From: an uncultured Vicinamibacterales bacterium
Lineage (GTDB): Bacteria; Acidobacteriota; Vicinamibacteria; Vicinamibacterales; UBA8438
Assembly: GCA_958295905.1 (NCBI GenBank)
Contig: OY282382.1
Span: 3,942,910-4,006,909 of the forward strand
Direction: 5' to 3'
DNA: 64,000 nt
Shown here: in pieces, positions 5,320-63,934 of the stretch
How positions within the stretch are numbered: the stretch's first letter is position 1
How the letters are laid out: each line of letters begins with the position of its first letter
Made by a program: the position numbers and the translations under genes
The notes under the pieces: generated by a model
Database searches by the model: none
What the model was told of the DNA's origin: nothing
Seen by the model: only the letters and a program-made list of their open reading frames with translations

Positions 5320-5550
5320 ACTGTTCCTCGTTCCGTGAGAGTCGGCCCCGACAGCCTGCCGCAGAAGGCCCCGGCGCCTTCGACGGGCGGTCTCGGCGCG
5401 ATGCGGGGTTCCGCCGCAGGCTGCCCAGCCCTTCCATCGGGCCGCGTCTCCGGCCGAACGCCGCCGGGCGGTTGTCCCGGTCGCGCCCGATCCGGCGACG
5501 CCAAATGATCGATCGTAGCAGAAGGGGCCGAACCGCGCATCAGTCAGGAT

Positions 5551-5665
5551 CCAGGACCATCCCACGCTCCGCCACCGCCGTGCGCAGGCCGAATCGCGGC
5601 GGGTCCTGGGGCTCCGGACATGCGGAATCGTGGGTCTGACACCGCGCCGGCCGGTCGGCAAGACA
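5551..5665 (-). repeat. Partial copy of the REP/MITE-like element (family of 18528, 27758, 63685)
   Basis: ccaggaccatcccacgctccgccaccgc...ccggtcggcaagac matches the reverse complement of the 27.8-kb copies from one terminus through the 36-bp core. Confidence 0.7.
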
Positions 5666-15765: not shown

Positions 15766-17487
15766 CTAGCCGGGCTCGGGCGTTCTTCGCCCGCCGGAGC
15801 CCCCACCGGCCGCCGGCGGCGCCGGTCTGGTTGCGACGGGGGGTTCCGCCACGGGCCGCGCCGCCGCGTCCCCGACGAGCGACGCCAGCCGTTCGAGCCC
15901 GGCCGCGGCGCCGCCACCCAGATGCAGCCGGACCACGCGGCGCCCGCGCGCGGCCAGCACCTCATGGTCGCCGAGCGCCTGCGCCATCTTCACCGTCCCG
16001 AACGTGCACGAGCGGCCCGGAACCGCCAGATCGCGGGCCGTGTCGTCGGTCGTGAGGACCACGAACACCCCGGTCGCCGGCCCCCCCTTGAACACTTGGC
16101 CGGTCGAATGGAGATAGCGCGGTCCGAACCCGACGCTCGTCGCCACGCGCCGGGCGTCGCGGACCCGGCGGCGGACGCGCTGCAGCGCCTCTGCGTTGTC
16201 CCCGCTCCGATCCAGGTACGCCAACAGGGCCAGATAGTCGCCGGGGCCCGCGCTCGCCACGTGCGCCGACACGAGCCGTTCGAGCGTGGCCGACCCGCCG
16301 GCCGCCGGCCGCAGCCGCGCGGCGGCACCGGCGTCGGCGAACAGGGCGATCCCGTCCGACTCGGCCACCGGCCGCTCGTCCGGCGGTCCCCCGGCCGCCT
16401 CCCAGGCCGCGGTCAGCGACCGCGCCGCGACCTTGGCGGCCTCCACGTCGGGCTGGTCGAAGGGGTTCACCCCCAGCACCGCCCCGCAGACGGCGGTGGC
16501 GAGCTCCCACCGGAAGAACTCGGCGGCCAGCGCCTCCCGGCCCGGCACCGGCAGGGTGACGACGGGGTGGCCGGCGGCGGCGAGGACGGCGAGGGCGGCA
16601 TCCTGCTCGAGATCGGGATCGTCCTCGACCCGCACGTGGACGAACAGACGGTCGCTACCGTACGCCGAGGGCGGACCAAGCTCCTCGTCGACGACGGGAA
16701 TCAGGCCCCGCCCCGCCTTGCCCGTCGACTCCGCCAGCAACTGCTCCAGCCACGCGCCGAGGGCGCGAACCGAGGGCGACAGCACCAGGGTGATCTTGTC
16801 CCGGCCGGCGGCGGCGGCGAGACCGAGCAGGAGCCCCAGCCGCGCCCCCGGGTTCCGGCCGGCGGGCACGGCGGGGCCGCAGAGCTCGGCCATCCTTCCC
16901 GCGGGCGCCAGGAACGCCGGCACGTCCACCCCGCAGGCCGCGGCGGGGACGAGGCCGAAGTTCGACAGCACCGAGAACCGCCCCCCCACGTCGGGGCGGC
17001 CGCTCCACACCTGCCGGAAGCCTTCCGTCCCGGCCATCGCCTCGAGGGCCGAGCCCGGATCGGTGATCGCCACGAAATGCGCGCCGGCCCGATCGGGTCC
17101 GACCGCCTGCCGCATGCGATCGAGGAAGTAGTCGGCGAGTAGCGCCGGCTCGAGGGTCGTTCCGGACTTGCTCGACACGATGCACAGGGTGCGGGGCAGG
17201 TCGAGCCGGGATGCGGTCCGCGCGATCTGCGCCGGGTCGGTCGAATCGAGCACGTGCAGCGCCGGCACCCGCGGCGCGAGAATCCGGCCGATGACCTCGG
17301 CGCCGAGACTGGATCCTCCCATGCCGAGGAGGAGGACGTCGGTGAACCCGCCCGCCCGCACCCCTTCGGCGAAGCGAGACAGCGCACCGGCCGGCAGGGC
17401 GGCGCCGGCCAGATCCAGCCACCCCAGCCAGCGCGCCTCGTCGCCCCCGGTCCAGACACCGGCATCCTTCCGCCACACGCGGCCCAC
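15766..17487 (-). CDS. pgi: Glucose-6-phosphate isomerase (Tal-Pgi-type PGI domain)
   Basis: SIS motifs LLLGMGGSSLG and IVSSKSGTTLEP; N-terminus RVWRKDAGVWTG...WLGWLD. The start is uncertain because the frame stays open upstream of the GTG at 17487. Confidence 0.8.
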   Translation of the reverse strand: MGRVWRKDAGVWTGGDEARWLGWLDLAGAALPAGALSRFAEGVRAGGFTDVLLLGMGGSSLGAEVIGRILAPRVPALHVLDSTDPAQIARTASRLDLPRTLCIVSSKSGTTLEPALLADYFLDRMRQAVGPDRAGAHFVAITDPGSALEAMAGTEGFRQVWSGRPDVGGRFSVLSNFGLVPAAACGVDVPAFLAPAGRMAELCGPAVPAGRNPGARLGLLLGLAAAAGRDKITLVLSPSVRALGAWLEQLLAESTGKAGRGLIPVVDEELGPPSAYGSDRLFVHVRVEDDPDLEQDAALAVLAAAGHPVVTLPVPGREALAAEFFRWELATAVCGAVLGVNPFDQPDVEAAKVAARSLTAAWEAAGGPPDERPVAESDGIALFADAGAAARLRPAAGGSATLERLVSAHVASAGPGDYLALLAYLDRSGDNAEALQRVRRRVRDARRVATSVGFGPRYLHSTGQVFKGGPATGVFVVLTTDDTARDLAVPGRSCTFGTVKMAQALGDHEVLAARGRRVVRLHLGGGAAAGLERLASLVGDAAARPVAEPPVATRPAPPAAGGGSGGRRTPEPG

Positions 17488-18189: not shown

Positions 18190-18527
18190 CCCCCTGCCAC
18201 CGAGGCGGTCCCCCCCCGCCGAACCCGCCGGACGATACGCCGGACACCGGGACCGGCAGTCAGAACGTTGACCGATATCGATGCGTCAAGCTCGACAAGG
18301 ACCGCCGTGGACTCCCTTGCCGGCGCACGGTTGCGCGGCACGGTGGTTCCGTCAGCGTCCCCCGGAAAATCGTCGCCTGCGGCTCCGATGGCCGCCCAAC
18401 CAACCCTCCAGGAGTCCGCGCCGTTCTACGGGCACTCCAAGTGCGCGCCAACCGCGGAACACGGTGATGAATCGTACTACAGAAGCGCCGCGGGAAGAGC
18501 CCGCATCAGCCGGCGGCCCAGGAGCAT

Positions 18528-18764
18528 CCCACGCTGCCTGCGCGTGACGGCCCGCCCCCGATTCGAGGGGTCGCCACCGTCTTGCCGACCGGCCGGCGCC
18601 GCGTGCTCCCAACTACGGTTGAACACAATCACTTGCTTCAAGTCGCCACCGTCTTGCCGACCGGCCGGCGCCGCGTGAGACCCACGATTCCGCACGTCCG
18701 GAGCCCCAGGACCCACCACGATTCCGCCTGCGCACGGCGGTGGCGGAGCGTGGGATGGTCCTGG
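18528..18764 (+). repeat. REP/MITE-like element copy carrying an internal 36-bp duplication around a 36-bp insert
   Basis: Termini ccaggagcatcccacgct ... agcgtgggatggtcctgg are inverted. DR1 is 18569-18604, the insert is 18605-18640 and DR2 is 18641-18676. Confidence 0.85.
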
Positions 18765-24252: not shown

Positions 24253-24359
24253 GTCCTACAAAATGCCTGACACCGGCTGGCCGTGTCAACGACGGGACTG
24301 ACCGGCGCCCGGACCTCGGCGCGTCAGCGCGGGAGTAAAGGTTCGCGCGCGCGGCCGTG

Positions 24360-24980
24360 TCAACGACGGGGACTGACCGGCGCCCGGACCTGCTGACCCC
24401 CGGGCTCGATCCGCTCGACGGGTACCGCGTGTCCGTCCCGCAGCACGTGTCGGGTCCCGCCGGCGAGAACGCTCCAGCCTCCGTTCCACCGCTCGATGCG
24501 GGGGCGATGCCCGGGAAACGGATGGGACCGGCGGAACGCGGTGTCGCCCGACACGAAGAAGAGCAGACCGGGGGCCGTGTCGCCCCGGCAACCGGGACTC
24601 CGGAACACCAGGGCGTCCCGGTTGCCGTCGCCGTCGAAGTCGCGCTGGTCCGGGAGATCGAGACACATGTCGTCCGTCTCTCCGAGCACCACGTGCTCGC
24701 GGTTTCCGATGCGGGCGACGAGGATGTCGAAGAATCGGGCACCCTTCACGACGTGGTAGACGATGCCGGAGGGTGATTCCGGGGCATCCCCGCGCCCGCC
24801 GGCGACATCGTTCGTCCCCGGCGCGGCCAACGACCGCGTCTCGTCCGTCTCGGGGGCGGGAGCAGCATCGGAAGCCGGCGGCGGCGCGGGATGGCCGGCG
24901 GGGACCGGCCCGGAATCGATCCGGCAGCCGGCGAGCGCCGCCCCGAGGACGAGGACCGTTCCCAGCTCCATGACGCGCAT
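24360..24980 (-). CDS. Hypothetical lipoprotein with an FG-GAP-like DxDGDG motif
   Basis: Signal peptide/lipobox LVLGAALAGC, and DQRDFDGDGNRDALVF. Confidence 0.5.
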   Translation of the reverse strand: MRVMELGTVLVLGAALAGCRIDSGPVPAGHPAPPPASDAAPAPETDETRSLAAPGTNDVAGGRGDAPESPSGIVYHVVKGARFFDILVARIGNREHVVLGETDDMCLDLPDQRDFDGDGNRDALVFRSPGCRGDTAPGLLFFVSGDTAFRRSHPFPGHRPRIERWNGGWSVLAGGTRHVLRDGHAVPVERIEPGGQQVRAPVSPRR

Positions 24981-25083
24981 CAGGTTCTACACCGCCGCGT
25001 CGATGGCGAGCGCCGCCCCGAGGACGAGGACCGTCCCCGGGGCGGCGGCCGGTTTCATGCGATGCCGGATGAGCAGCCGGCGA

Positions 25084-26425: not shown

Positions 26426-26442
26426 GGTCGTTTCACCTCTGT

Positions 26443-27757: not shown

Positions 27758-28113
27758 CCAGGGGCATCCCGCGCTGACGGCGCGCGACGGCCCGCCCCCG
27801 ATTCGAGGGGTCGCCACCGTCTTGCCGACCGGCCGGCGCCGCGTGAGACCCACGATTCCGCACGTCCGGAGCCCCGGGACCCGCCACGTTCCGCCTGCGC
27901 ACAGCGGTGGCGGAGCGTGGGATGGTCCTGGAGACCGCGCAGGGGCATCCCACGCTGACGGCGCGCGACGGCCCGCCCCCGATTCGAGGGGTCGCCACCG
28001 TCTTGCCGACCGGCCGCCGCCGCGTGAGACCCACGATTCCGCACGTCCGGAGCCCCGGGATCCGCCACGATTCCGCCTGCGCACAGCGGTGGCGGAGCGT
28101 GGGATGGTCCTGG
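27758..28113 (+). repeat. Two tandem copies (period 181 bp) of the REP/MITE-like element
   Basis: Each copy has inverted termini CCAGGnnCATCCCACGCT / AGCGTGGGATGGTCCTGG and a single copy of the 36-bp core gtcgccaccgtcttgccgaccggcc(g/c)gcgccgcgtg. Confidence 0.85.
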
Positions 28114-29659: not shown

Positions 29660-30036
29660 GCGTGCGTATCCCCAATCGAAGGCTTGCGTAGAGCCGTGGC
29701 TCGTCCGCCGAGAAGGACGAGCCGGGTTCCGATGGCCGCCGTCACCGGTGCGCATGCCGCACCCGCGGGCCGCCGGCCGATCATCGCGCCAAGAGCTCGG
29801 TGAAGCCGCCGGAACCCGTCGAGACCGGCGCCGACCCGTGCCGCCGACCGGTCACTCCGCGCCAGAAGTCCTGTCGCGGTAACGCACCTGCATCCCATGG
29901 CGCCGGCCGCGCGCCGCCCGCCGGCCGGTCACCGCGCCGCGACCGCGGCGGAGCCGCCAGAAGCCCGTCGAGACAGGCACCCGGCCGCGCGCCGCCCGCC
30001 GACCGGTCACTGCGCCGCGACCGCGGCGGAGCGCTG

Positions 30037-39329: not shown

Positions 39330-39470
39330 GCCTCGCCGCCGTGCGGGCCGTTCCGTAACCGACAGAGGTTAATGCGGAATGGTCCGCACGGTCCCGGACG
39401 GCCGGCGCATCGCCAACGGGCCAACCGCGTCCGTCGACCTCAAGCCTTTATCGGTGTGACCCCGCCCGTC

Positions 39471-42400
39471 GCTCAACGAAGGCCGGGGCGTGAACCCCGG
39501 CGACACGCGAGCTCCTGCTGGTGCGCCAGGCGCCGTTGGAACGCTCAACGAAGGCCGGGGCGTGAACCCCGGCGACACGCGGTGTGCTTGGTGGCGCCGG
39601 TGAGTCCGACGCTCGCTCAACGAAGGCCGGGGCGTGAACCCCGAACGACACGCGTGGGCGGAGGCGACGACCGCCCGGCTCCGCGGGGACGCTCAACGAA
39701 GGCCGGGGCGTGAACCCCGGCGACACTGGTCGGCACCGGCGGTCCCGGCGCCGGCGTATCGCGCTCAACGAAGGCCGGGGCGTGAACCCCGGCGACACTG
39801 GGGCCGCGACGGCGACCTGGGGCTCGAACCTGGTCGCTCAACGAAGGCCGGGGCGTGAACCCCGGCGACACGCGCAGGGCGGCCTGCACCGACATCCCGC
39901 TCCCCGACCGCTCAACGAAGGCCGGGGCGTGAACCCCGGCGACACGCGCAGGGCGGCGCACGCGCACGGCAGTCCCGGCTCGCTCAACGAAGGCCGGGGC
40001 GTGAACCCCGGCGACACCCGAGCCGCCCACGACCGAATTGTGCGCCTCCGTCCGCGCTCAACGAAGGCCGGGGCGTGAACCCCGGCGACACGTGGCCGGC
40101 GGCGCGGTCGAGTGGGGCAGCCGCCTGATCGCTCAACGAAGGCCGGGGCGTGAACCCCGGCGACACTGGCCGGCGGCGCGTGCGGTCCGGAGATTAGTCC
40201 GCGCTCAACGAAGGCCGGGGCGTGAACCCCGGCGACACCACCGCCGCCAGGGCGGTGCTGATGTCGGTCCCCCGCGCTCAACGAAGGCCGGGGCGTGAAC
40301 CCCGGCGACACCCGCGGGCACCGGCGCGAGGGTGCATCTCCTGACGCACCGCTCAACGAAGGCCGGGGCGTGAACCCCGGCGACACCGGACGGCGTGGGT
40401 GAGTCCGCAGGCGAGGCAGTACGCTCAACGAAGGCCGGGGCGTGAACCCCGGCGACACTGTCGGGCGCCGGGGACGGCTCCCTCAGGTCCATCCGCCGCT
40501 CAACGAAGGCCGGGGCGTGAACCCCGGCGACACTACCCGGCCGGGCGGCGCGGCGGTGGCGAGCAACGACGCTCAACGAAGGCCGGGGCGTGAACCCCGG
40601 CGACACGTCGGCTTCTACGGCCTCCGGGGGGCGGCACTCCCTCGCTCAACGAAGGCCGGGGCGTGAACCCCGGCGACACACGCGGAGCTCTACGGCATCC
40701 CCATCAGGATCGGACACGCTCAACGAAGGCCGGGGCGTGAACCCCGGCGACACTTGCGGCGGGCGCTCCGGGCGGTCCCGTCGGGATGACGCTCAACGAA
40801 GGCCGGGGCGTGAACCCCGGCGACACGACGAACGGCGCCGAGTTCCGCAGCGCCGCCGGGGCCCCGCTCAACGAAGGCCGGGGCGTGAACCCCGGCGACA
40901 CGCGGTGCGGCACGACTCCGCGAGTGTCTGTGTCACCGCTCAACGAAGGCCGGGGCGTGAACCCCGGCGACACGGCCTGGATCCGGCGATACAGCTCCGG
41001 ACTGACGTACGCTCAACGAAGGCCGGGGCGTGAACCCCGGCGACACCAGAAAAGACGATGGGCCCCTCCGGCCGGAAGTGCGTCGCTCAACGAAGGCCGG
41101 GGCGTGAACCCCGGCGACACGCCGGACAAATCGAACTGCGTCTGCAGCGCGGTAACGCTCAACGAAGGCCGGGGCGTGAACCCCGGCGACACCTCATCGC
41201 CTTGTCCAGCGCCGGGTTGCCGCTCGGGTCCGCTCAACGAAGGCCGGGGCGTGAACCCCGGCGACACCCGGCACGCTCAGGCGCGCGCCGACATCGCCGT
41301 GGTCGCTCAACGAAGGCCGGGGCGTGAACCCCGGCGACACAGCACGACGGCGAGCACCTCATACATCGGTCCACGCGCTCAACGAAGGCCGGGGCGTGAA
41401 CCCCGGCGACACACATACGGCGTTCGGGCCCGTGCCGCCCGTCCGCGCGCGCTCAACGAAGGCCGGGGCGTGAACCCCGGCGACACCCCCAGGAGGGCTC
41501 GGCGCGCGAGACGGGGCCGACGGCGGTCGCTCAACGAAGGCCGGGGCGTGAACCCCGGCGACACGCGAGCGCCCATGATTTCCCGACGCCGGCCAGGCCC
41601 GCTCAACGAAGGCCGGGGCGTGAACCCCGGCGACACTCAGCGATTGGCTAACCCACGCCCCGGCGACCCGCTTCGCTCAACGAAGGCCGGGGCGTGAACC
41701 CCGGCGACACGCACACATCGTCACCGCGGTCAGACGCGGCGGGGGGCGCTCAACGAAGGCCGGGGCGTGAACCCCGGCGACACTCGTTCCACGACCCGTA
41801 CCCGATGCCGACACCGGTCGCTCAACGAAGGCCGGGGCGTGAACCCCGGCGACACGTCCGGCGGAGTCGGCGCATGCCGAAGGTCCCGGCGCGCTCAACG
41901 AAGGCCGGGGCGTGAACCCCGGCGACACTCCCGGGGTTGCTGCGCTCGGTCAGCACGCTCACGGCCGACGCTCAACGAAGGCCGGGGCGTGAACCCCGGC
42001 GACACCATCCACCGGCCGACCCTTGTCGGTCCCCGCCATCGGCGCTCAACGAAGGCCGGGGCGTGAACCCCGGCGACACGGCACCTTCCGCTTCGAGGCC
42101 GCGGGGAGTGCCGACGCTCAACGAAGGCCGGGGCGTGAACCCCGGCGACACTCCCGCCGGACTCGGCGAGAGCCTGCTTGGACCAGCCCGCTCAACGAAG
42201 GCCGGGGCGTGAACCCCGGCGACACCGGCGCGCCGGCCCCGGCCCGGTCCCGCGCTTCTTGAGCGCTCAACGAAGGCCGGGGCGTGAACCCCGGCGACAC
42301 CGGCCGAGAGCGGGACGCCCATGGGTATGCCTCCTCGCTCAACGAAGGCCGGGGCGTGAACCCCGGCGACACTTCGCCCAGGACCGCGCCCGCAGCGACT

Positions 42401-45400
42401 TCGACCGGTGCGCTCAACGAAGGCCGGGGCGTGAACCCCGGCGACACGAACCCGCGCCCGGAGGACCTTCCAACGCTTGGTGTTCGCTCAACGAAGGCCG
42501 GGGCGTGAACCCCGGCGACACGCACAGGGCGGATGAGCCACGACCGGACTGCCGCCCGCCGCTCAACGAAGGCCGGGGCGTGAACCCCGGCGACACGTCG
42601 TCACCGACGGCAACGCTTCGCCGTCGAGCGTCGCTCAACGAAGGCCGGGGCGTGAACCCCGGCGACACCTCCCGAGCACGATCACAAGGAAGCGTTCTGC
42701 CTGATGTGCGCTCAACGAAGGCCGGGGCGTGAACCCCGGCGACACGCAGGCGTGGACGCGGATCAGGTCGGCGCTCCCACACGCTCAACGAAGGCCGGGG
42801 CGTGAACCCCGGCGACACCAGCAACCGGAGTGTGTCACTGCCACTGCCGGTAGCCGTTCGCTCAACGAAGGCCGGGGCGTGAACCCCGGCGACACCTTGG
42901 CCCCTGATGATGTCGCTGACGCCGCTGACTTCCGCTCAACGAAGGCCGGGGCGTGAACCCCGGCGACACCCACGAGGCGGCCGGCAGGAGCACGTCCGGG
43001 TCGCCCGCCGCTCAACGAAGGCCGGGGCGTGAACCCCGGCGACACACCTTGAAATCGACTATACCGGCCAACTTGTCGCCGCTCAACGAAGGCCGGGGCG
43101 TGAACCCCGGCGACACGGCGGCGCTCGGTGACCAGGTGGGCGGGAGCCTGACCGGCGCTCAACGAAGGCCGGGGCGTGAACCCCGGCGACACTTGGCGCT
43201 CGAACCGGGCCGCGGGCAGGTCGCGGACCGCTCAACGAAGGCCGGGGCGTGAACCCCGGCGACACACTCCACGATGGCGACAGCGCGGGCGCTGACCGGC
43301 TACTCCCGCTCAACGAAGGCCGGGGCGTGAACCCCGGCGACACTGGTAAAGATAGCTCCCCGCACCGGTGCCACCTACTCCCGCTCAACGAAGGCCGGGG
43401 CGTGAACCCCGGCGACACACAAACTCCAGACTGGAACCCATCACAGGAACCATGACCGCTCAACGAAGGCCGGGGCGTGAACCCCGGCGACACCCGACCA
43501 TGCCGGCCGAACCAGCGAACCTCCCCCCGCTCAACGAAGGCCGGGGCGTGAACCCCGGCGACACTTCTTGAGCTCGCCGGTGATCTGGTTCAAGCCGCCC
43601 GCTCAACGAAGGCCGGGGCGTGAACCCCGGCGACACCTCGCGGAGCAGGATGGCGCGGCGCATCGGCGGATGCGCTCAACGAAGGCCGGGGCGTGAACCC
43701 CGGCGACACCTCGCGGAGCAGGATGGCGCGGCGCATCGGCGGATGCGCTCAACGAAGGCCGGGGCGTGAACCCCGGCGACACGCCACCGCGAGATACCAG
43801 CAGACGCGGTGTTGGGTGCGCTCAACGAAGGCCGGGGCGTGAACCCCGGCGACACCACGAGAAGCGCCGCGGCCAGCGCCTCGCGCCGCGTCGCTCAACG
43901 AAGGCCGGGGCGTGAACCCCGGCGACACCACACCTGCGCCAGGTCGCCCTTGTGCGCCTCGTACGCTCAACGAAGGCCGGGGCGTGAACCCCGGCGACAC
44001 CTAGCATCCTGGGATTGGCTACTCACCGTATTCAGTTCGCTCAACGAAGGCCGGGGCGTGAACCCCGGCGACACTTCTTCTGCTTCTCGGCGCGCCACAC
44101 CTCGATCCGCGCTCAACGAAGGCCGGGGCGTGAACCCCGGCGACACCCGACCCAAACCTCGGCCCGGCCAGTATCTGGCCACGCTCAACGAAGGCCGGGG
44201 CGTGAACCCCGGCGACACCCTCGGCTTGCAGCCGCACATCGTGGCGCTGTCTGCCGCTCAACGAAGGCCGGGGCGTGAACCCCGGCGACACCGGCGCGCC
44301 GGGCTCGAGCCCGGCGCGCCAGGTGCTCGCTCAACGAAGGCCGGGGCGTGAACCCCGGCGACACATGCGTCCACCGGCGGACGTTCCCCCGCGCGGCCGC
44401 CGCTCAACGAAGGCCGGGGCGTGAACCCCGGCGACACTCGCCGATCCTGACCAGCCCGCACCGGACGACCTCGGGCGGCGCTCAACGAAGGCCGGGGCGT
44501 GAACCCCGGCGACACTCGCCGAACTCCACGGGGGGCGGGTCGCCCCGCCGCGCTCAACGAAGGCCGGGGCGTGAACCCCGGCGACACTCCAGGACCAAAA
44601 GTCATGATCGAGAAACGGCACGGCGCTCAACGAAGGCCGGGGCGTGAACCCCGGCGACACGCGGCGGTGCCCAGCGCTTGAGGCACGGCGTCCGACGCTC
44701 AACGAAGGCCGGGGCGTGAACCCCGGCGACACCGTCACCAGGCATCCGGGGGCCGACAGTCTCATCGACGCTCAACGAAGGCCGGGGCGTGAACCCCGGC
44801 GACACGCGAGCGCCCATGATTTCCCGACGCCGGCCAAGCCCGCTCAACGAAGGCCGGGGCGTGAACCCCGGCGACACCACACCGGCAAGGCCGCAGCCGA
44901 CGTTCGCCTACACCGCTCAACGAAGGCCGGGGCGTGAACCCCGGCGACACTCGCGCGCCTGCCCGGGGAGACCCGTCACATCGTCGCTCAACGAAGGCCG
45001 GGGCGTGAACCCCGGCGACACGCCTGCGTTCCGGGGCGCTGACGCGCCTAGAGGGCCACCGCTCAACGAAGGCCGGGGCGTGAACCCCGGCGACACGTCG
45101 ATGGCCCCGCTGAACCGGGACGATTTCGACGCCGCTCAACGAAGGCCGGGGCGTGAACCCCGGCGACACCCTGATTGGCCCTTGCTGACTGACTGATAAG
45201 TGAATGCGCTCAACGAAGGCCGGGGCGTGAACCCCGGCGACACAAGAGCGCCGAAGCCGGGGGGACGGAACTCCATCGTCGCTCAACGAAGGCCGGGGCG
45301 TGAACCCCGGCGACACTCGACCCGGAGATCGACGGCCGCGAGGCCGACGGGCGGGCCGCTCAACGAAGGCCGGGGCGTGAACCCCGGCGACACCCGCGGG

Positions 45401-48400
45401 GGTCGCCCCGATCTGGCCGCTCGTGTTCCACGCTCAACGAAGGCCGGGGCGTGAACCCCGGCGACACTCGCCGACTTCCCCGTTGCTGTTCCGGGTCAAC
45501 CGGATCGCTCAACGAAGGCCGGGGCGTGAACCCCGGCGACACGTGCTCGACATGGGGCGCGCCGCCTTGGATGCTTCGGTCGCTCAACGAAGGCCGGGGC
45601 GTGAACCCCGGCGACACTCGGTGGATTTAGCTGCGCCGGTGAGGCTCCGGCTCGCTCAACGAAGGCCGGGGCGTGAACCCCGGCGACACCCGCGACACGG
45701 CGCCGGCGGCGGTGTCGTCGAACGGCGCTCAACGAAGGCCGGGGCGTGAACCCCGGCGACACCCCCTTGGATGATGATCTTATACCGCCCGCCCACGAGC
45801 GCTCAACGAAGGCCGGGGCGTGAACCCCGGCGACACGGACATGCTCCGGCGCGGCTTCCTCGCCGGAGATCGCTCAACGAAGGCCGGGGCGTGAACCCCG
45901 GCGACACCCCCGCCTACCCGAGCACGAACCCGCACCGTGACCCGCTCAACGAAGGCCGGGGCGTGAACCCCGGCGACACGTGGGTCTACGGCGCGTCGAT
46001 TACCGCGGGCACGGGCGCTCAACGAAGGCCGGGGCGTGAACCCCGGCGACACGCCCGTCGTCTCGCGGCACAACCACGCGCCGCCGCCCTCCGCTCAACG
46101 AAGGCCGGGGCGTGAACCCCGGCGACACACCCGACGCCGGGTGGCTGGCCGGGCAGGCCGAGCGGGCCGCTCAACGAAGGCCGGGGCGTGAACCCCGGCG
46201 ACACGAGGCTGGGCGTAGGGTCCCGACGCATGGCCGGATACTCGCTCAACGAAGGCCGGGGCGTGAACCCCGGCGACACCCCATTCCGCCAGCATGCAGG
46301 GGCCGGGCCACAACAACCGCGCTCAACGAAGGCCGGGGCGTGAACCCCGGCGACACCCGCCGCGCAGGGCGGCGCACGCGCACGGCAGTCCGGGCTCGCT
46401 CAACGAAGGCCGGGGCGTGAACCCCGGCGACACCCCATTCCGCCAGCATGCAGGGGCCGGGCCACAACAACCGCGCTCAACGAAGGCCGGGGCGTGAACC
46501 CCGGCGACACATACTCGAAGAGCTGCACAAGAACGGTGAGTTTGCCCGCTCAACGAAGGCCGGGGCGTGAACCCCGGCGACACGGGCCGCCCGGTTCCTC
46601 GGGCTCGGCGGCGGCGGCTGGTACGCTCAACGAAGGCCGGGGCGTGAACCCCGGCGACACCCTCCCCGGCGGGCACGGGGTGTAGCCGCGGCCCTTGCCC
46701 GCTCAACGAAGGCCGGGGCGTGAACCCCGGCGACACGGCGTTGACGCCCAGGGTCCGCTGGCCGCCGACGTGCGCTCAACGAAGGCCGGGGCGTGAACCC
46801 CGGCGACACCGCCTCGGGCACGAGGCGCGGGTCGAAGCCACGCTCCGCTCAACGAAGGCCGGGGCGTGAACCCCGGCGACACCGACACGTAGTACTCCAC
46901 GTCGGCCGACTGCTCAGCCGCTCAACGAAGGCCGGGGCGTGAACCCCGGCGACACCCGCAGCGGGCCGCCGCGGACATCCCACGACGCGACCGCGCTCAA
47001 CGAAGGCCGGGGCGTGAACCCCGGCGACACGCCCGGCGACCGCGGGTACTTCCGGGGGGGCGGGGCCGCTCAACGAAGGCCGGGGCGTGAACCCCGGCGA
47101 CACGCATCCTGTTCGGCGGGGGCGCCAAGCGGCCGGCGCGCTCAACGAAGGCCGGGGCGTGAACCCCGGCGACACTCGGAGTGGCGGCGTTCCTGCGCCT
47201 GCATCCAATCGTCGCTCAACGAAGGCCGGGGCGTGAACCCCGGCGACACGCGCCCACGCCGGGTCGTTGCCGTCCGTCATCACGTGCGCTCAACGAAGGC
47301 CGGGGCGTGAACCCCGGCGACACCCACACCGACGACAGCACGCCGACCGCCCAACCGCACGCTCAACGAAGGCCGGGGCGTGAACCCCGGCGACACGCTG
47401 ATACGGCGCTTGGTGGCGCGCGTGGATGAGCTCGCTCAACGAAGGCCGGGGCGTGAACCCCGGCGACACTCGGAGCTCGGCGACACGACCGGCGCGGTGG
47501 ATGAGGCCGCTCAACGAAGGCCGGGGCGTGAACCCCGGCGACACCTCCTGCCTGCTGTCCAGACCCAACGCCCTGTCGAGCGCTCAACGAAGGCCGGGGC
47601 GTGAACCCCGGCGACACACGCGCCACACGGGGTCCGGGGCCGATGGGTGGTGGATGCGCTCAACGAAGGCCGGGGCGTGAACCCCGGCGACACGCCCGGG
47701 CCCCCGGCCCCATCCCCAAGGGCGCCCTCCGCGCTCAACGAAGGCCGGGGCGTGAACCCCGGCGACACACGCGACGATACAGATGATCGCCTCGATGTCC
47801 ATCGATCGCTCAACGAAGGCCGGGGCGTGAACCCCGGCTTCTTCGTGACCGCGGACTCGGCCTCGACGTAGACCGCTCAACGAAGGCCGGGGCGTGAACC
47901 CCGGCGACACCCCTTCACGACCGAGCGAGCGGAGCGAGCGAGGGAGCGCTCAACGAAGGCCGGGGCGTGAACCCCGGCGACACACGACCGCCACGGATCG
48001 CGCGCCGTCGGCCGATCCGCTCAACGAAGGCCGGGGCGTGAACCCCGGCGACACGCGCGGCACGCCCGGCGGCGCCTACCTGGCGTCGCGCGGGCGCTCA
48101 ACGAAGGCCGGGGCGTGAACCCCGGCGACACGCCGTTGTGGGCGATGTAATAGCGGTTGTCGTCCGGGCGCTCAACGAAGGCCGGGGCGTGAACCCCGGC
48201 GACACTCCCGCGGGCCGGGGTGCCGTCGGCACTGGACCGCCCCGCTCAACGAAGGCCGGGGCGTGAACCCCGGCGACACACGCTCCGCATGTCATATGGT
48301 TACGCTCCGCGTGTCCGCTCAACGAAGGCCGGGGCGTGAACCCCGGCGACACTCGTCGTCGGCCGGGGTCTCGTCGGCGTCGTGATCCGCTCAACGAAGG

Positions 48401-51400
48401 CCGGGGCGTGAACCCCGGCGACACTGGAGCACCCACAGCAGCCGCCGGCTGACCTTGCCCATCGCTCAACGAAGGCCGGGGCGTGAACCCCGGCGACACT
48501 TCACAGAAAGCTCGGCGTCAGTTCTTGGCACGTCAACGCTCAACGAAGGCCGGGGCGTGAACCCCGGCGACACTTCTCGAGCCGCCCGCGCCACGCCTTG
48601 AGCTCGGCGTTCGCTCAACGAAGGCCGGGGCGTGAACCCCGGCGACACTCCGCGGACCTCGAACGGCCGCGAGAGCGAGTGGGTCGCTCAACGAAGGCCG
48701 GGGCGTGAACCCCGGCGACACGGGGCCGCCCGGCGACATGGAGTGGCTGACAGCGCACGCTCAACGAAGGCCGGGGCGTGAACCCCGGCGACACCATCAC
48801 GAGGTCGGCGGTCTCCCCGCGGCCGTCGCGCGCTCAACGAAGGCCGGGGCGTGAACCCCGGCGACACGCGATACAGCGGAGGAATCTACCACGGAGGCAA
48901 CCTCGCTCAACGAAGGCCGGGGCGTGAACCCCGGCGACACTGCGACCTCTCCGTTGCTCAACCTCGTCAGCCGGATCGCTCAACGAAGGCCGGGGCGTGA
49001 ACCCCGGCGACACCCGCCGCGATGCTCTCGCTGCAGCGGCTAGGGCTCACGCACGCTCAACGAAGGCCGGGGCGTGAACCCCGGCGACACGCTCTGGGCG
49101 GACGGGCCCAGCGCGCCGCCAAGCGCGCGCTCAACGAAGGCCGGGGCGTGAACCCCGGCGACACTCCAAGCCGTTGCGGACGCCGCCGCGGCGGCCGGCG
49201 GGGAACGCTCAACGAAGGCCGGGGCGTGAACCCCGGCGACACCCTCCAGAGCGAATCCGACCGCCACCGGGTCGTAGACCGCTCAACGAAGGCCGGGGCG
49301 TGAACCCCGGCGACACGGCTTGAAGTGCATCTTGGCCTGAGCCTTGGCTGTCGCTCAACGAAGGCCGGGGCGTGAACCCCGGCGACACAACGCCGCCCTC
49401 GCGTGCGCGGCGTTCCTCGCGGCCGCTCAACGAAGGCCGGGGCGTGAACCCCGGCGACACCTGTTGCAACTTCCCACGACTGCCCGCCCAGCCCGCCGCG
49501 CTCAACGAAGGCCGGGGCGTGAACCCCGGCGACACCTGTCTCCCACCTTCGGCCCGCGCCCCGCGAGCGAACGCTCAACGAAGGCCGGGGCGTGAACCCC
49601 GGCGACACACGCCGGCCACGAGCATGTAGTGCGTCGCGCCCATCGCTCAACGAAGGCCGGGGCGTGAACCCCGGCGACACTGGTGGTGTGCGGCCCTGAC
49701 GGCCGCCGAGGACGATGGCGCTCAACGAAGGCCGGGGCGTGAACCCCGGCGACACGTGCGAGGCGGCGTCATTCAGCGCGGCGAAGGAAGCCGCTCAACG
49801 AAGGCCGGGGCGTGAACCCCGGCGACACTCGAGCCACTCGGCCTCGAGCAGGCCCGAGTCTATCGCGCTCAACGAAGGCCGGGGCGTGAACCCCGGCGAC
49901 ACCCTCCAGCACCGCCGCCCCGACATCCCCCGACCGACCCGCTCAACGAAGGCCGGGGCGTGAACCCCGGCGACACTCGGGCCTCCGCAGTTGCGCGGGT
50001 GCTGGCTAGTCCGCGTCGCTCAACGAAGGCCGGGGCGTGAACCCCGGCGACACCGCACATGGATGTGGCTCGTCGCCACATTTTCAACATCGCTCAACGA
50101 AGGCCGGGGCGTGAACCCCGGCGACACGCCGACGGCGTGAAGGGGGCCGATCTCAAGGCCGCCCCCGCTCAACGAAGGCCGGGGCGTGAACCCCGGCGAC
50201 ACGCGGAGCAGCGCGGATGCAATGTCACCGGATCTGCCCCCGCTCAACGAAGGCCGGGGCGTGAACCCCGGCGACACCACCAAGCCGCCCGCCAACCGGG
50301 ACACGTCGTCCGCCGTCGCTCAACGAAGGCCGGGGCGTGAACCCCGGCGACACTGCCGCAGTCGCCGAACGTCAACGGCCTCATCGTGCGCTCAACGAAG
50401 GCCGGGGCGTGAACCCCGGCGACACCTGCCCCGGTGCCGCGGGCGCGCCCGCCACCCGCGTCGCTCAACGAAGGCCGGGGCGTGAACCCCGGCGACACGC
50501 ACCCGTATACCCATAGTCCCCATAGGCCCGGAACGCTCAACGAAGGCCGGGGCGTGAACCCCGGCGACACCCGCGCGGCTCATCCGCCCGCGCGAACCGT
50601 CAGCCGCTCAACGAAGGCCGGGGCGTGAACCCCGGCGACACCACGAGCCATCCGGCGGCGATCGTCTTGCCCGACTCCGCTCAACGAAGGCCGGGGCGTG
50701 AACCCCGGCGACACACGAAATCACGCAGGATTTGCCGGCGTTCTTCGTATCGCTCAACGAAGGCCGGGGCGTGAACCCCGGCGACACCCGGCGTATCCGC
50801 GCCGCCGTCGATTTCGGCGCGGACGGCGCTCAACGAAGGCCGGGGCGTGAACCCCGGCGACACCTCCTGGGTGGATGGCCCTGATTGGCCCTTGCTGACT
50901 GCGCTCAACGAAGGCCGGGGCGTGAACCCCGGCGACACCGCCGCGCAGGGCGGCGCACGCGCACGGCAGTTCGGGCTCGCTCAACGAAGGCCGGGGCGTG
51001 AACCCCGGCGACACTCCCGGAGCGGCTACAAGACCATCGTCGATCTCGACGGGCGCTCAACGAAGGCCGGGGCGTGAACCCCGGCGACACCCCGGCGCGC
51101 CGATGGCCCGCGCTTCATCGAGCTCGTCCGCTCAACGAAGGCCGGGGCGTGAACCCCGGCGACACCGCTGCCGCGATCCGGTGTGGGGGGCCGTCAAGTC
51201 CGCTCAACGAAGGCCGGGGCGTGAACCCCGGCGACACTCAGAGCGTCCGCCGCGCCGGAGCGGCTTAGTGCACGCTCAACGAAGGCCGGGGCGTGAACCC
51301 CGGCGACACTGGGCGTGGGCGGCGTGGCCGCCGGGATGCATCTCGCTCAACGAAGGCCGGGGCGTGAACCCCGGCGACACCCGCTCAGTGACTCTGTGGC

Positions 51401-54099
51401 GAACACGGCATGACTGATCGCTCAACGAAGGCCGGGGCGTGAACCCCGGCGACACCGGCAAACCGATCGGCCAGCTAGCCGCCGATTCCCGTCACCGCTC
51501 AACGAAGGCCGGGGCGTGAACCCCGGCGACACGCGCAGGGCGGCGCACGCGCACGGCAGTCCTCGTTCGCTCAACGAAGGCCGGGGCGTGAACCCCGGCG
51601 ACACCCGGGGTCGGATGTCCCGGACGGGCCGATGGTGTGGGCGCTCAACGAAGGCCGGGGCGTGAACCCCGGCGACACACGTCGAGGCCGCGGTCGATCA
51701 GGTCGGCGACGAGCGCCCGCTCAACGAAGGCCGGGGCGTGAACCCCGGCGACACTGCCCAGCGCCGCGTAGTTCAGCGGCCGAGTCACTGCGCTCAACGA
51801 AGGCCGGGGCGTGAACCCCGGCGACACGCCGGCGCTGGCTGAGCTCGATACCGCGCTCGGTGCGCTCAACGAAGGCCGGGGCGTGAACCCCGGCGACACC
51901 CGCCCGGACCCCTGCCGCGGCGCGATGCTCTCACCAGCGCTCAACGAAGGCCGGGGCGTGAACCCCGGCGACACTCGCCCGGACGGCGGTGCTCAAGGCC
52001 GCCCGGGCGCGCTCAACGAAGGCCGGGGCGTGAACCCCGGCGACACCAGGCGGCGCGTCGATCCCGGAGCCCACCGTCTGGAGCGCTCAACGAAGGCCGG
52101 GGCGTGAACCCCGGCGACACCGGTGCGAAGCCGGATGCGCCGGCCGCCACCTGGACGCGCTCAACGAAGGCCGGGGCGTGAACCCCGGCGACACTTGAGG
52201 GCGTGGCGAATCTCCTGCCCGTTGAGCGGGGCGCTCAACGAAGGCCGGGGCGTGAACCCCGGCGACACGCCAACACGGCGGCGCAGCGGGCCGCCGTCCA
52301 AGCCGCTCAACGAAGGCCGGGGCGTGAACCCCGGCGACACTCCAGCCGGCGGGGCGGGCCCGGAGGTCGGCGTCGTGCGCTCAACGAAGGCCGGGGCGTG
52401 AACCCCGGCGACACAGTTCGACCTCGCGGATGAAGTCGCCGAGCAGCTGCGCTCAACGAAGGCCGGGGCGTGAACCCCGGCGACACGTCCTGGTTGCCGA
52501 CGAGCGTGCCCTCGAACGCGCTCGCTCAACGAAGGCCGGGGCGTGAACCCCGGCGACACGCCAGTGCCGCGGGTGCATCGCAGCGCGGCGGAGAGGCGCT
52601 CAACGAAGGCCGGGGCGTGAACCCCGGCGACACTCGATCTTGTGGGTCCAGGTCCTCACGCTCACGCGCGCTCAACGAAGGCCGGGGCGTGAACCCCGGC
52701 GACACTCGAGTCGGCCGCGCAGGTGACCCTCTGGCCCGGGCGCTCAACGAAGGCCGGGGCGTGAACCCCGGCGACACGACCTGCTGGGCGCGATCCAGCT
52801 CTGGCTAGTCCGCTCGCTCAACGAAGGCCGGGGCGTGAACCCCGGCGACACGCGGGCATCTGGGGGGCGCACTAGATGGTACCGAGGCTCGCTCAACGAA
52901 GGCCGGGGCGTGAACCCCGGCGACACCCGCGGCGCGTGCTGTGCACGGTCTGCACCGATCGCGCTCAACGAAGGCCGGGGCGTGAACCCCGGCGACACCT
53001 GGAGCCGGTGCAATGCCGGCGGCCGATGCGGGAGCGCTCAACGAAGGCCGGGGCGTGAACCCCGGCGACACCGCCGGCGGCGCGTTGAGCACGTCGACCC
53101 GCCGCAGCGCTCAACGAAGGCCGGGGCGTGAACCCCGGCGACACAGGCGCTCGAAGCCGCGGCGGAAGCCCGCGACGACGCTCAACGAAGGCCGGGGCGT
53201 GAACCCCGGCGACACATCCGCCATGCGGCTGTTGGCGGCGTTCATGTGGCGCGCTCAACGAAGGCCGGGGCGTGAACCCCGGCGACACTCTATCGTATGG
53301 GTCCAGGTCCTCACGCTCACGTGCGCTCAACGAAGGCCGGGGCGTGAACCCCGGCGACACCCCACGCGCGGCACCGCGTGCAGTAGACACCCTCCTCCAG
53401 CGCTCAACGAAGGCCGGGGCGTGAACCCCGGCGACACCGTACCGCAGGGCGGTGCCGGTGACGCGGCGCGACTCGCTCAACGAAGGCCGGGGCGTGAACC
53501 CCGGCGACACACCCGACGGTTCGGCCAGGCGGCGGTCACGCATCCATCGCTCAACGAAGGCCGGGGCGTGAACCCCGGCGACACGCGCCCGACAGCCCGG
53601 CAGTGCCGAGCTGGATGACCTCGCTCAACGAAGGCCGGGGCGTGAACCCCGGCGACACTGGCGTGTCTCGCACTGTCCGGCATGGAGGCGCCTCCCGCGC
53701 TCAACGAAGGCCGGGGCGTGAACCCCGGCGACACGTGAAGGGGACGCCGACGCGGACGGCGCCGATGGAACGCTCAACGAAGGCCGGGGCGTGAACCCCG
53801 GCGACACTGGTCCGGCGTCATCGGGCCGCCCGCCGCGTGGCCCGCTCAACGAAGGCCGGGGCGTGAACCCCGGCGACACGTCCCGCATCGCCACCAGAAG
53901 CCGAGCGTCCCGTCCGCTCAACGAAGGCCGGGGCGTGAACCCCGGCGACACCCGCGTCCGCGTTCGAGGTCTGCGCCTGCATCGCGGCCGCTCAACGAAG
54001 GCCGGGGCGTGAACCCCGGCGACACTCGACACGCCGGCCGGGACGGCGTTCCGCGCCCGGGTCGCTCAACGAAGGCCGGGGCGTGAACCCCGGCGACAC
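39471..54099 (-). CRISPR. CRISPR array with a 36-bp repeat and about 200 spacers of 35-41 bp
   Basis: The plus-strand repeat is gctcaacgaaggccggggcgtgaaccccggcgacac. The transcribed (minus) form is GTGTCGCCGGGGTTCACGCCCCGGCCTTCGTTGAGC, a 7-bp stem plus an 11-nt 3' tail. The period is 72-77 bp. A degenerate repeat at the 39.6-kb end and the leader and cas2 at the 54.1-kb end set the orientation. The count is estimated from length divided by period. Confidence 0.97.
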
Positions 54100-54293
54100 C
54101 CTAATCATACGTAGGGGGCTGCATCAAGACGAACGTGTCCCGTTCAGAGGACATCCGAAGTTCGCCAGTGGCGCAGCTTGCGGTCCTGCGAGGCATCGTT
54201 GAACCCTATTCCGTCGGTGAGGTCCGGTTCAAGTCTGACAATGACGCCCGACCCCCTATGGCCGTTCAGAATCACCGGGGGTTCGCAGGTAGA
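54100..54293 (-). promoter_or_regulatory. CRISPR leader
   Basis: 194-bp non-coding, visibly lower-GC stretch between the cas2 stop and the first perfect repeat. Confidence 0.7.
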
Positions 54294-54584
54294 TCAAATC
54301 ACCCAGGGCTGACCGAGTTCGTGACGCTGGCCTCGCCCGAAACGGAGCGTTGCGTCGTCGATACGGCCGGGGAAGCGATAGACGATCACCGAGTCGCGTT
54401 GGTGATCAATCACGTCCTGGACCTCGCCGATCATGCGGGTCAGCTTGGTGGGAGAGAGCCGGCACTCGAAGACCGAGAGCTGCACGCGGATGCCGTACTT
54501 CTCGCAGACCTCGGCTACACGCTTGAGCCGCGATGCCCCATCCCCCTCCGTGTCGGCGATGTCGTAGGTGACGAGGACGTCCAT
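54294..54584 (-). CDS. cas2: CRISPR-associated endoribonuclease Cas2
   Basis: MDVLVTYDI...RLKRVAEVCEKYGIRVQLSVFEC. ATG at 54584, 4 nt after the cas1 stop. Confidence 0.9.
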   Translation of the reverse strand: MDVLVTYDIADTEGDGASRLKRVAEVCEKYGIRVQLSVFECRLSPTKLTRMIGEVQDVIDHQRDSVIVYRFPGRIDDATLRFGRGQRHELGQPWVI

Positions 54585-54588
54585 CGCT

Positions 54589-55605
54589 TCATGGCAGCAC
54601 GAACGGCGGATACGCCGGCAGATCACCGCGGAGGTGACGGGCGAGCAGAGTCGCCTGGACCGACGGCAGCGCCCAGCGGCCTATCTGGCGACCCAAGAGC
54701 GGATGCCGGATCTCGGCTTCCTTGTGTTCCTCCCAAGCCTTGATCAGACCCGTCCGACCGTCGTCGCTCAGGTAGACGCCGCCTCCCGGCACCTGGACGA
54801 AGCTGTCGTGGCCGACTTGCCGGCGGCGAATCAGGGACACGACGAATCGGTCTGTCAGGGCGCGCTGCTCCTCGGCAAGGTCCAGGGCGAGCGAGGGGCG
54901 GCCGGCACGCGGACGATGGAAGAAGCCCATCTGGTAATCCAGGCCGACGCTCTCCGCCGCGCCGATGCACTCCGTCACCAGCAAGCCGTAGCAAAATCCG
55001 AGCATGGCGTTGACGGGGTCCCGGGGCGGCCGACGTGTTCTTGCCGAGAAATCCAGGTCACTCGACGCGAGGGCCTGACCGACCGCGCGAAAGTAGATTC
55101 TGGCCGCATCGCCTTCAATACCCCGAATGTGGTCCGCAGTTTCGGCGTCGACCAGTCGAGCGATCCGCTCCCGGATCTGGGCGCCGCGAGCCGCGAGCCG
55201 TTCTGCCTCGGCGGCATTCTTCTCATCGCGCGACCACCGATCGACGACCTTCCGGCTGTTCTGGAGCTTCGCCGCAACAATTGCCTTGGACAGGGCGAGC
55301 GACTTGACGTCGTCCATGGCGGTCCGGAACAGCGCCGTACGCAAATGCACGTTCCCGCCGGTCGCGCCGTTGACGACGAACCGGATGGCTCCGCTCATGT
55401 GGAGCGCGGCCACGCGAACACCGCGGCGCACGCACGCATCCAGAGCCTGGGTGGTGACCTGCGCGCCGCCCAGCACGACCAGAGCGTCAATCGCTTCGAG
55501 CGGAATCCGCTGACTCCCGTCCGGCGAGGACACGAGCAGCGACCCGCGGCGATGCTGCACGCGGGCGCGATGGTTGCGGACGTACACGGTGCTCAGGTAG
55601 CGCAT
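54589..55605 (-). CDS. cas1: CRISPR-associated integrase Cas1
   Basis: 338 aa with the Cas1 pattern (IEGDAARIYF, NAMLGFCYGLL, DLAEE). It is not fused to Cas4. Confidence 0.9.
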   Translation of the reverse strand: MRYLSTVYVRNHRARVQHRRGSLLVSSPDGSQRIPLEAIDALVVLGGAQVTTQALDACVRRGVRVAALHMSGAIRFVVNGATGGNVHLRTALFRTAMDDVKSLALSKAIVAAKLQNSRKVVDRWSRDEKNAAEAERLAARGAQIRERIARLVDAETADHIRGIEGDAARIYFRAVGQALASSDLDFSARTRRPPRDPVNAMLGFCYGLLVTECIGAAESVGLDYQMGFFHRPRAGRPSLALDLAEEQRALTDRFVVSLIRRRQVGHDSFVQVPGGGVYLSDDGRTGLIKAWEEHKEAEIRHPLLGRQIGRWALPSVQATLLARHLRGDLPAYPPFVLP

Positions 55606-56210
55606 CCGAATACGGCGTCGGCCATGTACCGCTCTACCTTACGGGGCCTGCTCGTGAGCTCGGGCAAACAGTGGTGCAGTAGCTGGCATTCCGCACACCG
55701 GCGGTCGTTGGGCGCGTCCGGCAGATCGGCCGTCAGCATCTGCTTCCGGATCTCGTGGATGACGGTCTGCACGTCGTGGCGCAACTCCACCGTGAAATCG
55801 ACCAGAACGCGGCGCCGCGGTCCGCCGTACCACACATGGCCGTGCGGCACGGCGGCGTCGAACATCTCCTCGAGACACAGCGCCTGCGCGCACAGCTGGA
55901 GATCCGCAGCCATTCCATGCCGTACACCCGCCTTGTATTCGACGGGATGGACCGCTCCATCGTCTACTTCGACTGCATCGGCGCGGCCCGACAGTCCCAG
56001 TCTCTCGGACCAGAGCGGGATGGAGCGAAGTATCTGTCGCCCCCGTTCACGGCGATGCTGGCCGCTGTCGACCCGGCGATGCGCGCGCATGCCCTTCACG
56101 GTGTGGACGTTGTCGCTCCAGACGCCGTCGCAATGGATCAGGGCGCATTGGCGCGGACAGTACGCGAAGTGCTCAATGGCGGAGATCGGAACGACGGGCT
56201 CGGTGTTCAC
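55593..56210 (-). CDS. cas4: CRISPR-associated exonuclease Cas4
   Basis: FAYCPRQ N-terminal Cys, the GRADAVE...PVEYK nuclease motif and C-terminal CAECQLLHHC. It overlaps cas1 by 13 nt. Confidence 0.9.
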   Translation of the reverse strand: MNTEPVVPISAIEHFAYCPRQCALIHCDGVWSDNVHTVKGMRAHRRVDSGQHRRERGRQILRSIPLWSERLGLSGRADAVEVDDGAVHPVEYKAGVRHGMAADLQLCAQALCLEEMFDAAVPHGHVWYGGPRRRVLVDFTVELRHDVQTVIHEIRKQMLTADLPDAPNDRRCAECQLLHHCLPELTSRPRKVERYMADAVFGCAT

Positions 56211-62592: not shown

Positions 62593-62913
62593 GCGGCCAC
62601 CTCCGCGCGATTCCGTGACCCGACCGCGCCTGCCAGTGTCCAGTCCCAACTAATATTTGCTCGTGGCACAGGTCCGGTCATCCAGGCAATCGTTGTTGGC
62701 GCAGAACCCGAGGGGCGTGCTGCCGTGCCGGCGTCTGCGCCCGCCGGGATTACGATTCTCTTGTCGGTCGCTGCGTTCCGCGCCACCAGATCGGCGCGCC
62801 GTGCCCCACGCACGCATCGAAGACGTGAATGCCCGCAGCGACGAGGGACCGCTGAGTTGCGCGGCGTCGTGCTCGACTCCCTCCCGGCTCACGAAGCGCG
62901 GGCGGCCGGTTCG

Positions 62914-63684: not shown

Positions 63685-63934
63685 CAGGACCATCCCACGC
63701 TCCGCCACCGCCGTGCGCAGGCCGCATCGTGGCGGATCGTGGGGCTCCGGACGGGCGGAACCGTGGGTCCCACGCGGCGCCGACCGGTCGGCAAGACAGT
63801 GGCGACCCCGCCGCCGACGAATACCGGCGCATGCTCGCCGCCGCGGCACGCGGCGCCGGCCGGTCGGCAAGACGGCGGCGACCCCTCGAATCGGGGCGGG
63901 CCCGTCACGCGCCGTCAGCGTGGGATGCCCCTGG
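63685..63934 (-). repeat. REP/MITE-like element copy (reverse orientation) with a duplicated 36-bp core around a 37-40-bp insert
   Basis: caggaccatcccacgct...agcgtgggatgcccctgg. Core copies lie at 63771-63806 and 63847-63882. Confidence 0.8.

Follow-up and report, generated by a model that had tools for sequence, protein, structure and literature searches.

Strain-specific insertions of spacer-sized DNA with 36-bp target duplications in a Vicinamibacterales lineage, best explained by ectopic Cas1-Cas2-type integration

The window (the whole 64,000-nt stretch of DNA analysed here) carries a type I-G CRISPR-Cas locus on its minus strand. The complete cas operon (54294..62649) comprises csb1/cas7g, csb2, cas3g, a gene for a Cas3-extension family protein, cas4, cas1 (54589-55605) and cas2 (54294-54584); the last three are intact and form a complete Cas4-Cas1-Cas2 module within the window. 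The leader (54100..54293, minus strand) ends in ...TATGATTAGG and adjoins the first repeat of an array (39470..54099, minus strand) of 198 repeats of 37 bp, GTGTCGCCGGGGTTCACGCCCCGGCCTTCGTTGAGCG, with spacers of 34-41 nt. This repeat is identical over its 37 positions in 197/198 copies, so that the length of 36 bp given for it in the initial annotation of this DNA is not borne out; the modal spacer length of 36 nt, stated there as well, was confirmed. Within the array, one repeat has an altered 5' end and a degenerate repeat lies near the trailer (39579-39689). Counted from the leader, spacers 104/106 and 141/142 are two identical pairs, adjacent or close to one another, and spacers 35, 43, 105, and 192 form an overlapping family that samples one target.

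A sister strain, L006, which we reached through its PPIase protein, is collinear with the window except for positions 39418-62766, which comprise the whole array and the cas operon (23.3 kb) and are missing from L006. In their place it has about 90 bp of unrelated sequence (L006 10663-10753), which includes the repeat-like string GTGTCGCGGGCACCCGATTGAGAAC. No Cas1 of this cluster is on record on the L006 contig or on that of another sister strain, L004, the sole large-contig match, at 100%, being evidently the source genome itself. Six related I-G loci (L026-L031), whose Cas1 is 93% identical, share the same operon and a 37-bp repeat (GGGTCGCC...GAGCG) and lie in six different contexts, with IS21, Tn3, ISL3, and IS110 transposase genes as neighbours. 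These varied, transposase-rich surroundings suggest that the I-G cassette is mobile, and in this genome it is probably a recent arrival.

The window also contains copies of a short non-coding element without an ORF, of which there are at least 60 in related contigs. The unit measures about 172 bp, its 18-nt terminal inverted repeats (CAGGGGCATCCCACGCTG / GAGCGTGGGATGGTCCTG) are 83% complementary, and at five loci it is flanked by direct repeats of 9-10 bp that correspond to target duplications, for example GCCCCCGGCC in contig L016. These repeats, the target duplications, and the size point to a MITE and not to a REP, as the element had been labelled, a REP being an imperfect palindrome of 20-40 nt that is usually clustered and linked to a RAYT transposase. 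The copy number, the dimensions and the lack of coding capacity are those of the known class of MITEs; what sets the element apart is the 36-bp duplication described below, which lies inside the host element and is unrelated to its own transposition. No Rfam family matches the element, PLSDB holds no copy of it, and it is absent from the orthologous loci of a related species. A scan of a genome collection with a 20-mer of the right arm gave at least three loci; among the matches listed, two were chance matches inside genes, and the remaining one, from a Vicinamibacterales MAG, was a diverged copy of the MITE. Folding showed neither the element nor its core to be unusually stable.

A single 36-bp core is the norm in this family. 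By sequence comparison, the reference "empty" form is the MITE at 27759..27930 (plus strand), which is followed in tandem by a second single-core unit at 27940..28112 (plus strand). Their cores, at 27810-27845 and 27991-28026, have the flanks of the doubled copy described below, in agreement with the initial annotation, which had pointed to insert-free copies here. The number of tandem units varies: there are two in the window (27751-28121) and in L005 (232-586), and one in L004 (297-467), and the units are separated by copies of an 8-9 bp target duplication (GGGACCGCG / GAGACCGCG). A further MITE, at 5550..5664 (minus strand), lies just downstream of an RNase III-like gene and is 5'-truncated, its left arm missing and the break falling about 9 nt into the core. 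To tabulate cores more widely, we compared a six-frame translation of the MITE with a protein collection and obtained 55 spurious ORFs at E <= 0.001, which with two cluster members made a set of 57 ORFs and 66 cores. The sole doubled locus among these is that of L006. The MITE copies of L016 have a single core, as do all copies seen at the DNA level outside the events. Scans of JGI metagenomes for the doubled core and for the left junction found neither, and the element is absent from them.

Between positions 18519 and 18763 (plus strand), in the rpiB-proximal intergenic region, lies a MITE whose core is doubled (event E1). Its terminal inverted repeats are CAGGAGCATCCCACGCTG / GAGCGTGGGATGGTCCTG, and it is flanked by a 10-bp direct repeat, GCCGGCGTCC, that is perfect in L004. 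The core, GTCGCCACCGTCTTGCCGACCGGCCGGCGCCGCGTG, a 36-mer for which 0 chance matches are expected, was found by exact pattern matching within the window at 18570..18605 and again at 18642..18677, both on the plus strand. The initial annotation had recognized this exact duplication and placed it at 18569-18604 and 18641-18676, one base to the left of its true position. The two copies enclose a unique, spacer-like insert of 36 nt, CTCCCAACTACGGTTGAACACAATCACTTGCTTCAA (18606..18641, plus strand), which, as had been noted, is low in GC (16/36, or 44%, against 71% over the whole window). Because the bases preceding the two copies (g / a) and those following them (c / a) differ, the duplication is exactly 36 bp.

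The pre-insertion state is found in L004 and L005, two contigs of one long-read metagenome assembly on which the RpiB protein of the window is encoded without any difference. At the corresponding place each has this MITE, with one core and no insert, and its sequence there is shorter than that of the window by exactly 72 bp. Their rpiB-proximal intergenic region is otherwise about 98% identical to that of the window, the added core and insert being the sole large difference. This empty orthologous site, together with the single core that is the rule of the family, identifies E1 as a strain-specific insertion with a 36-bp target-site duplication and upholds the earlier view that it is not a two-copy tandem repeat. 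A tandem-repeat search with TRF did not report the locus, and a tandem repeat or VNTR is ruled out by the 36 nt between the copies, which are unrelated to the flanks and absent from the sister strains. E1 is not a canonical CRISPR array either. Such an array has a leader and several evenly spaced repeats that the Cas6-type nuclease of its own system can process, whereas E1 consists of no more than two copies of a core that differs from the resident repeat and is without its hairpin, and a leader was not identified.

The window contains a second doubled core that the initial annotation had overlooked. It belongs to a MITE upstream of the PPIase gene (63685..63933, minus strand; event E3), with cores at 63847-63882 and 63771-63806 and a different, GC-rich insert of 40 nt at 63807-63846. 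The edges of E3 are ambiguous, allowing 36-39 bp duplicated and 37-40 nt inserted. Upstream of the same gene, L006 has two tandem MITEs, both with doubled cores. The E3 insert recurs there with 1 SNP, between cores that have since come to differ at four positions; E3 is an old event. The second tandem MITE of L006 holds another insert (E2), 38 nt long, between identical cores with clear 36-bp edges; these cores share three variants private to that MITE copy, which fits a duplication in situ. The same 36 bp of the MITE have been targeted at least three times independently, with inserts of 36, 38, and 37-40 nt, and the core is a recurrent target.

One might suppose instead that the two-core form is ancestral, as a MITE subfamily with a mini-array, and that the single cores of the sister strains arose through recombination between direct repeats. 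Recombination between cores does seem to occur: near the PPIase gene the window has one MITE where L006 has two, and the right arm of this single MITE matches the second unit of L006, the pattern expected of such an exchange. Yet nearly all copies have a single core, the inserts of the three doubled cores are unrelated, E2 has its copy-private variants in both of its cores, and sites outside the MITE have the same structure and are empty in sister strains. We consider an ancestral two-core form highly improbable, and favour insertion.

These sites outside the MITE came from a scan for short direct repeats parted by unique sequence. There are at least seven units at unrelated non-MITE sites, with a duplication of about 36 bp and a unique insert of 35-41 nt; two of them lie in genes and several are polymorphic between strains. 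In all, this acidobacterial lineage has at least ten such repeat-spacer-repeat scars, of which E1 is one, scattered over unrelated sites. Non-tandem direct repeats show a cluster of offsets at 71-76 bp, and a scan of unrelated and viral contigs gave no such pairs. The non-redundant sequence covered for this species, roughly 85 kb, contains about ten units, from which we estimate a density of about one per 10 kb. Four intergenic tandem repeats of the window (20492-20670, 26439-26618, 31230-31454, and 32378-32578), with periods of 96, 61, 58, and 102 bp, respectively, have nothing in common with the MITE or with the 71-76 bp class.

Two events alter predicted proteins. E7 is private to L004 (12357-12464), where a 36-bp duplication and a 36-nt insert lie inside the 3' end of pgi; L005 and the window, in which the empty target is at 15804..15839 (minus strand), lack it. 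The 72-bp insertion is in frame and lengthens the predicted glucose-6-phosphate isomerase by 24 residues, to 598 aa from 574 aa. E4 is present in all three strains and corresponds to window positions 24930..25040 (plus strand), where an insert of 39 nt (24966-25004) lies between two 36-bp repeats, 24930-24965 and 25005-25040, that agree at 34/36 positions. This 75-bp spacer-like insertion falls at the 5' end of a 206-aa ORF (24980..24360, minus strand), where the duplicated segment encodes the hydrophobic stretch GTVLVLGAALA. Read from the old ORF start, MKPAAAPGTVLVLGAALAIDAAV, the frame now meets a stop inside the insert, which also supplies a new ATG that restores MRVMELGTVLVLGAALAG..., using the duplicated hydrophobic segment again. 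We see the units best as scars, some of which alter genes (pgi and the signal-peptide gene at 24.9 kb).

Two further differences between the strains were recorded. Between pgi and the next gene, the window has a low-GC segment of about 133 bp (15636-15768, TAGTGCATAGCCACAAATAAACATTAGG...) that is absent from both sister strains, and L004 has a private segment (14907-18833) with genes for a DDE transposase, an HTH protein, a TniQ-like protein, and a UvrD-like helicase, which occurs neither in the window nor in L005.

The remaining units have the same build. E8 is private to L006 (20121-20227; 36-bp duplication, 35-nt insert), and its empty target is at 29939..29974 of the window (minus strand). 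E5/E6 lie beyond the window's end (L006 7600-7785), as three 36-bp repeats with spacers of 38 and 39 nt. E9 and E10 are on L016, a 1.66-Mb contig of the same assembly, with repeat and insert lengths of 36+39 and 37+39, and E11 and E12 are two loci in a related species (L007-L013), with repeats of 32-38 bp and inserts of 33-40 nt. A possible older unit at 24284..24391 (plus strand), with repeats of about 34 bp that include one indel and an insert of about 40 nt, is uncertain; we dropped it as a clean event, L004 differing there by a larger indel. An insert, a direct target duplication and an identifiable empty site were found together at E1, E7, and E8.

Wherever the edges of an event are unambiguous, 36 bp are duplicated. 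The inserts, of 35-41 nt, fall within the 34-41 nt range of the resident spacers; in sequence they are related neither to one another nor to local DNA nor to any resident spacer. The targets share no motif with each other or with the CRISPR repeat, are not unusually palindromic and show no enrichment in hairpins. Excision footprints were rejected as an explanation since the inserts have no common ends, and copying from nearby sequence was rejected since they are unrelated to local DNA. The initial annotation had held that an insert common to an element subfamily, or duplications of arbitrary length, would count against integration; among what could be checked, the insert proved unique and the duplications were not of arbitrary length.

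The source of the inserts was sought as that annotation had proposed. The E1 insert has no match in local DNA, among the resident spacers, or in phages, plasmids, and IMG/VR, and no credible candidate emerged from these checks. For all event inserts, BLAST against phages and plasmids and half-spacer scans of IMG/VR gave only chance matches of 18-21 nt that do not extend. About 110 resident spacers, when compared with the phage collection, matched nothing either, and the missing protospacers of the inserts consequently carry no weight.

The units might also be taken to serve the I-G effector, either as a working mini-CRISPR array or as a regulator resembling a crRNA. The cas operon region has one doubled MITE about 1 kb upstream of it, and mini-arrays with a regulatory function close to cas loci are on record. 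Against such a role, the core is similar to the resident repeat in GTCGCC only, has no repeat-like hairpin (-10.8 vs -17.1 kcal/mol, z ~0) and no matching 3' handle, and the units are strain-private and scattered, with some inside genes. We give this reading very little credence; with both hairpin and 3' handle missing from the core, processing of the unit into crRNA is unlikely.

Integration of the Cas1-Cas2 type at ectopic sites is in our view the best explanation of the units, and a probable one. At E1, a spacer-sized fragment of 36 nt would have been integrated recently, and in this strain specifically, at the centre of a MITE copy. An integrase would cut the two strands 36 bp apart, the fragment would be joined to both cut ends, and, in filling the gaps, repair would double the intervening 36 bp. 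Cas1-Cas2 works by the same chemistry in CRISPR adaptation; here it would act off-target and outside the array, and its product would be a solitary repeat-spacer-repeat unit, the seed of a "neo-CRISPR". The polarity of insertion, the constant 36-bp duplication, the unrelated inserts of 35-41 nt, the repeated targeting of the core and the polymorphism among strains are observed; the nature of the enzyme we infer. A fixed stagger of about one repeat length, inserts heterogeneous within the range of spacer lengths, reuse of a site, and clean empty sites are the hallmarks of Cas1-Cas2.

A process independent of Cas proteins might be an integrase with a 36-bp stagger or a repair process that captures short DNA at staggered breaks. 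The density of about one unit per 10 kb, the presence of units in strains without the I-G locus, the lack of a target motif and of protospacers for the inserts are all in keeping with it. However, a fixed 36-bp duplication combined with heterogeneous inserts of 35-41 nt is not, to our knowledge, the product of any transposase or repair pathway; both lengths moreover coincide with the sizes of CRISPR repeats and spacers, and the inserts, without common termini and not templated nearby, are not excision footprints. Such a process seems unlikely to us, and staggered integration of the Cas1-Cas2 type is the only known chemistry that fits.

Which Cas1-Cas2 module would be responsible is a separate matter. 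The initial annotation had named the resident system, there called type I-U; its mechanism holds as the best explanation, in view of the empty sites and the constant 36-bp duplication, while the attribution to that system is not established. Of the probability that we assign to Cas1-Cas2-type integration, roughly half falls to the resident I-G module and half to another one. In favour of the former, the left junction of the MITE resembles the leader-repeat junction of the I-G array, GATT--AGGGTGTCGCC aligning with GATTCGAGGG-GTCGCC at an offset of 1-2 nt. This likeness, which had been offered as an extra clue, is real but weak, since 0.6% of random 26-nt windows from the same DNA score as well (p ~0.006). 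A weak likeness to the leader-repeat junction is also a property of the off-target sites of purified Cas1-Cas2 (PMC6895254). In the same work the second cut was set by a ruler that moves by a base if the repeat is altered (PMC6895254), and a one-base shift, 36 instead of 37 bp, is plausible on non-cognate targets. A conserved spacer-end nucleotide that might reconcile 36 with 37 bp was sought, and no rule fits all events.

Attribution to the adjacent I-G system is nevertheless doubtful. The duplications are 36 bp and the repeat 37 bp, both in the resident array and in the six related ones. L006 has private events and neither array nor cas locus, and L004, with no Cas1 of this type on record on its contig, has a private event as well. 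A similar scan of about 55 kb of non-redundant flank of the related I-G loci gave no such unit. The density of about one unit per 10 kb is, in addition, far above what would be expected of rare off-target integration. On the other side, insertion alleles can pass between cas-positive and cas-negative strains in a recombining population, the I-G cassette may come and go, and host factors may set specificity, all of which are arguments against excluding it.

The same observations lend themselves to another possibility, which we put forward tentatively: a different Cas1-Cas2 module with a 36-bp repeat, located elsewhere in these genomes and common to all strains, would have made the insertions, and the I-G system would be a bystander. 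The difference between 36 and 37 bp, the private events of L006 and L004, the lack of events beside related I-G loci and the transposase-rich, differing contexts of a cassette that probably arrived recently would all follow. Against this, the ORF-derived matches include no array built on a repeat like the MITE core, and E1 is specific to the window, that is, to an I-G-positive strain, with a junction that resembles the I-G leader-repeat junction.

Ectopic integration of the Cas1-Cas2 type has counterparts in known systems. For type I-E in E. coli, new arrays were shown to arise from off-target integration (Nivala et al., 2018, as cited in later work). The neo-CRISPRs described there and our units share a spacer-sized insert, a site outside CRISPR at which roughly one repeat length has been duplicated, and the ability of repeated integration to build a small array, as at L006 7600-7785. 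In contrast to what is described there, the events reported here are natural, took place without over-expression and are resolved by the empty sites of sister strains; with about 1 per 10 kb they lie close together, they hit the MITE core recurrently and genes occasionally, the duplicated length falls one base short of the resident repeat, and some events are in strains without the resident system.

Isolated arrays, too, have been proposed to originate, among other ways, from off-target acquisition (Shmakov et al., 2020, cited through PMC13142298). Orphan mini-arrays are, like our units, short arrays away from cas genes with repeats unlike the cognate repeat; here the pre-integration state is seen directly and most units have a single spacer. 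Ectopic acquisition in S. thermophilus CRISPR1/3 (PMC7999890) likewise takes place away from the leader-proximal repeat, but inside a bona fide array and at true repeats, whereas the targets here are non-CRISPR. An I-U/I-G adaptation module studied earlier acquires mainly 36-bp spacers (Almendros et al., 2019; PMC6547450), and canonical adaptation of this type thus shares with our case the modal insert of about 36 nt and, in the window, the presence of Cas4, Cas1, and Cas2. It differs in that the site here is not the leader-proximal repeat and the duplication is 36 and not 37 bp, and, unlike in that system, Cas4 and Cas1 are separate genes here.

The dense, strain-polymorphic class of spacer-like insertions is more notable than E1 alone. 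Off-target spacer integration had earlier been shown directly only in engineered E. coli and loosely inferred from orphan mini-arrays; here, several independent events allow the filled site of one strain to be compared directly with the empty site of its sisters, and they include a recurrent MITE hot spot and insertions within genes. A broader reading, which we hold to be possible though far from assured, is that this Vicinamibacterales-like lineage has a promiscuous spacer integrase that inserts fragments of about 36 nt with 36-bp duplications across the chromosome, of which about one scar per 10 kb survives. Such an integrase may be a Cas1-Cas2 whose leader specificity has been lost in this host, or an enzyme apart from the resident CRISPR-Cas system. 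If this reading is true, such an integrase would be a mutational force that lengthens proteins, as with the 24 residues added to the pgi product, rebuilds gene starts and seeds proto-arrays, and the strains would offer a natural, strain-resolved snapshot of the birth of a CRISPR array. Should the enzyme be a Cas1-Cas2, the lineage would allow target choice, and the working of the ruler on non-cognate DNA, to be studied in a natural system, would show what adaptation costs the genome and would provide a route to de novo array birth; should it not be the resident system, something new would be integrating spacer-sized DNA in these bacteria.
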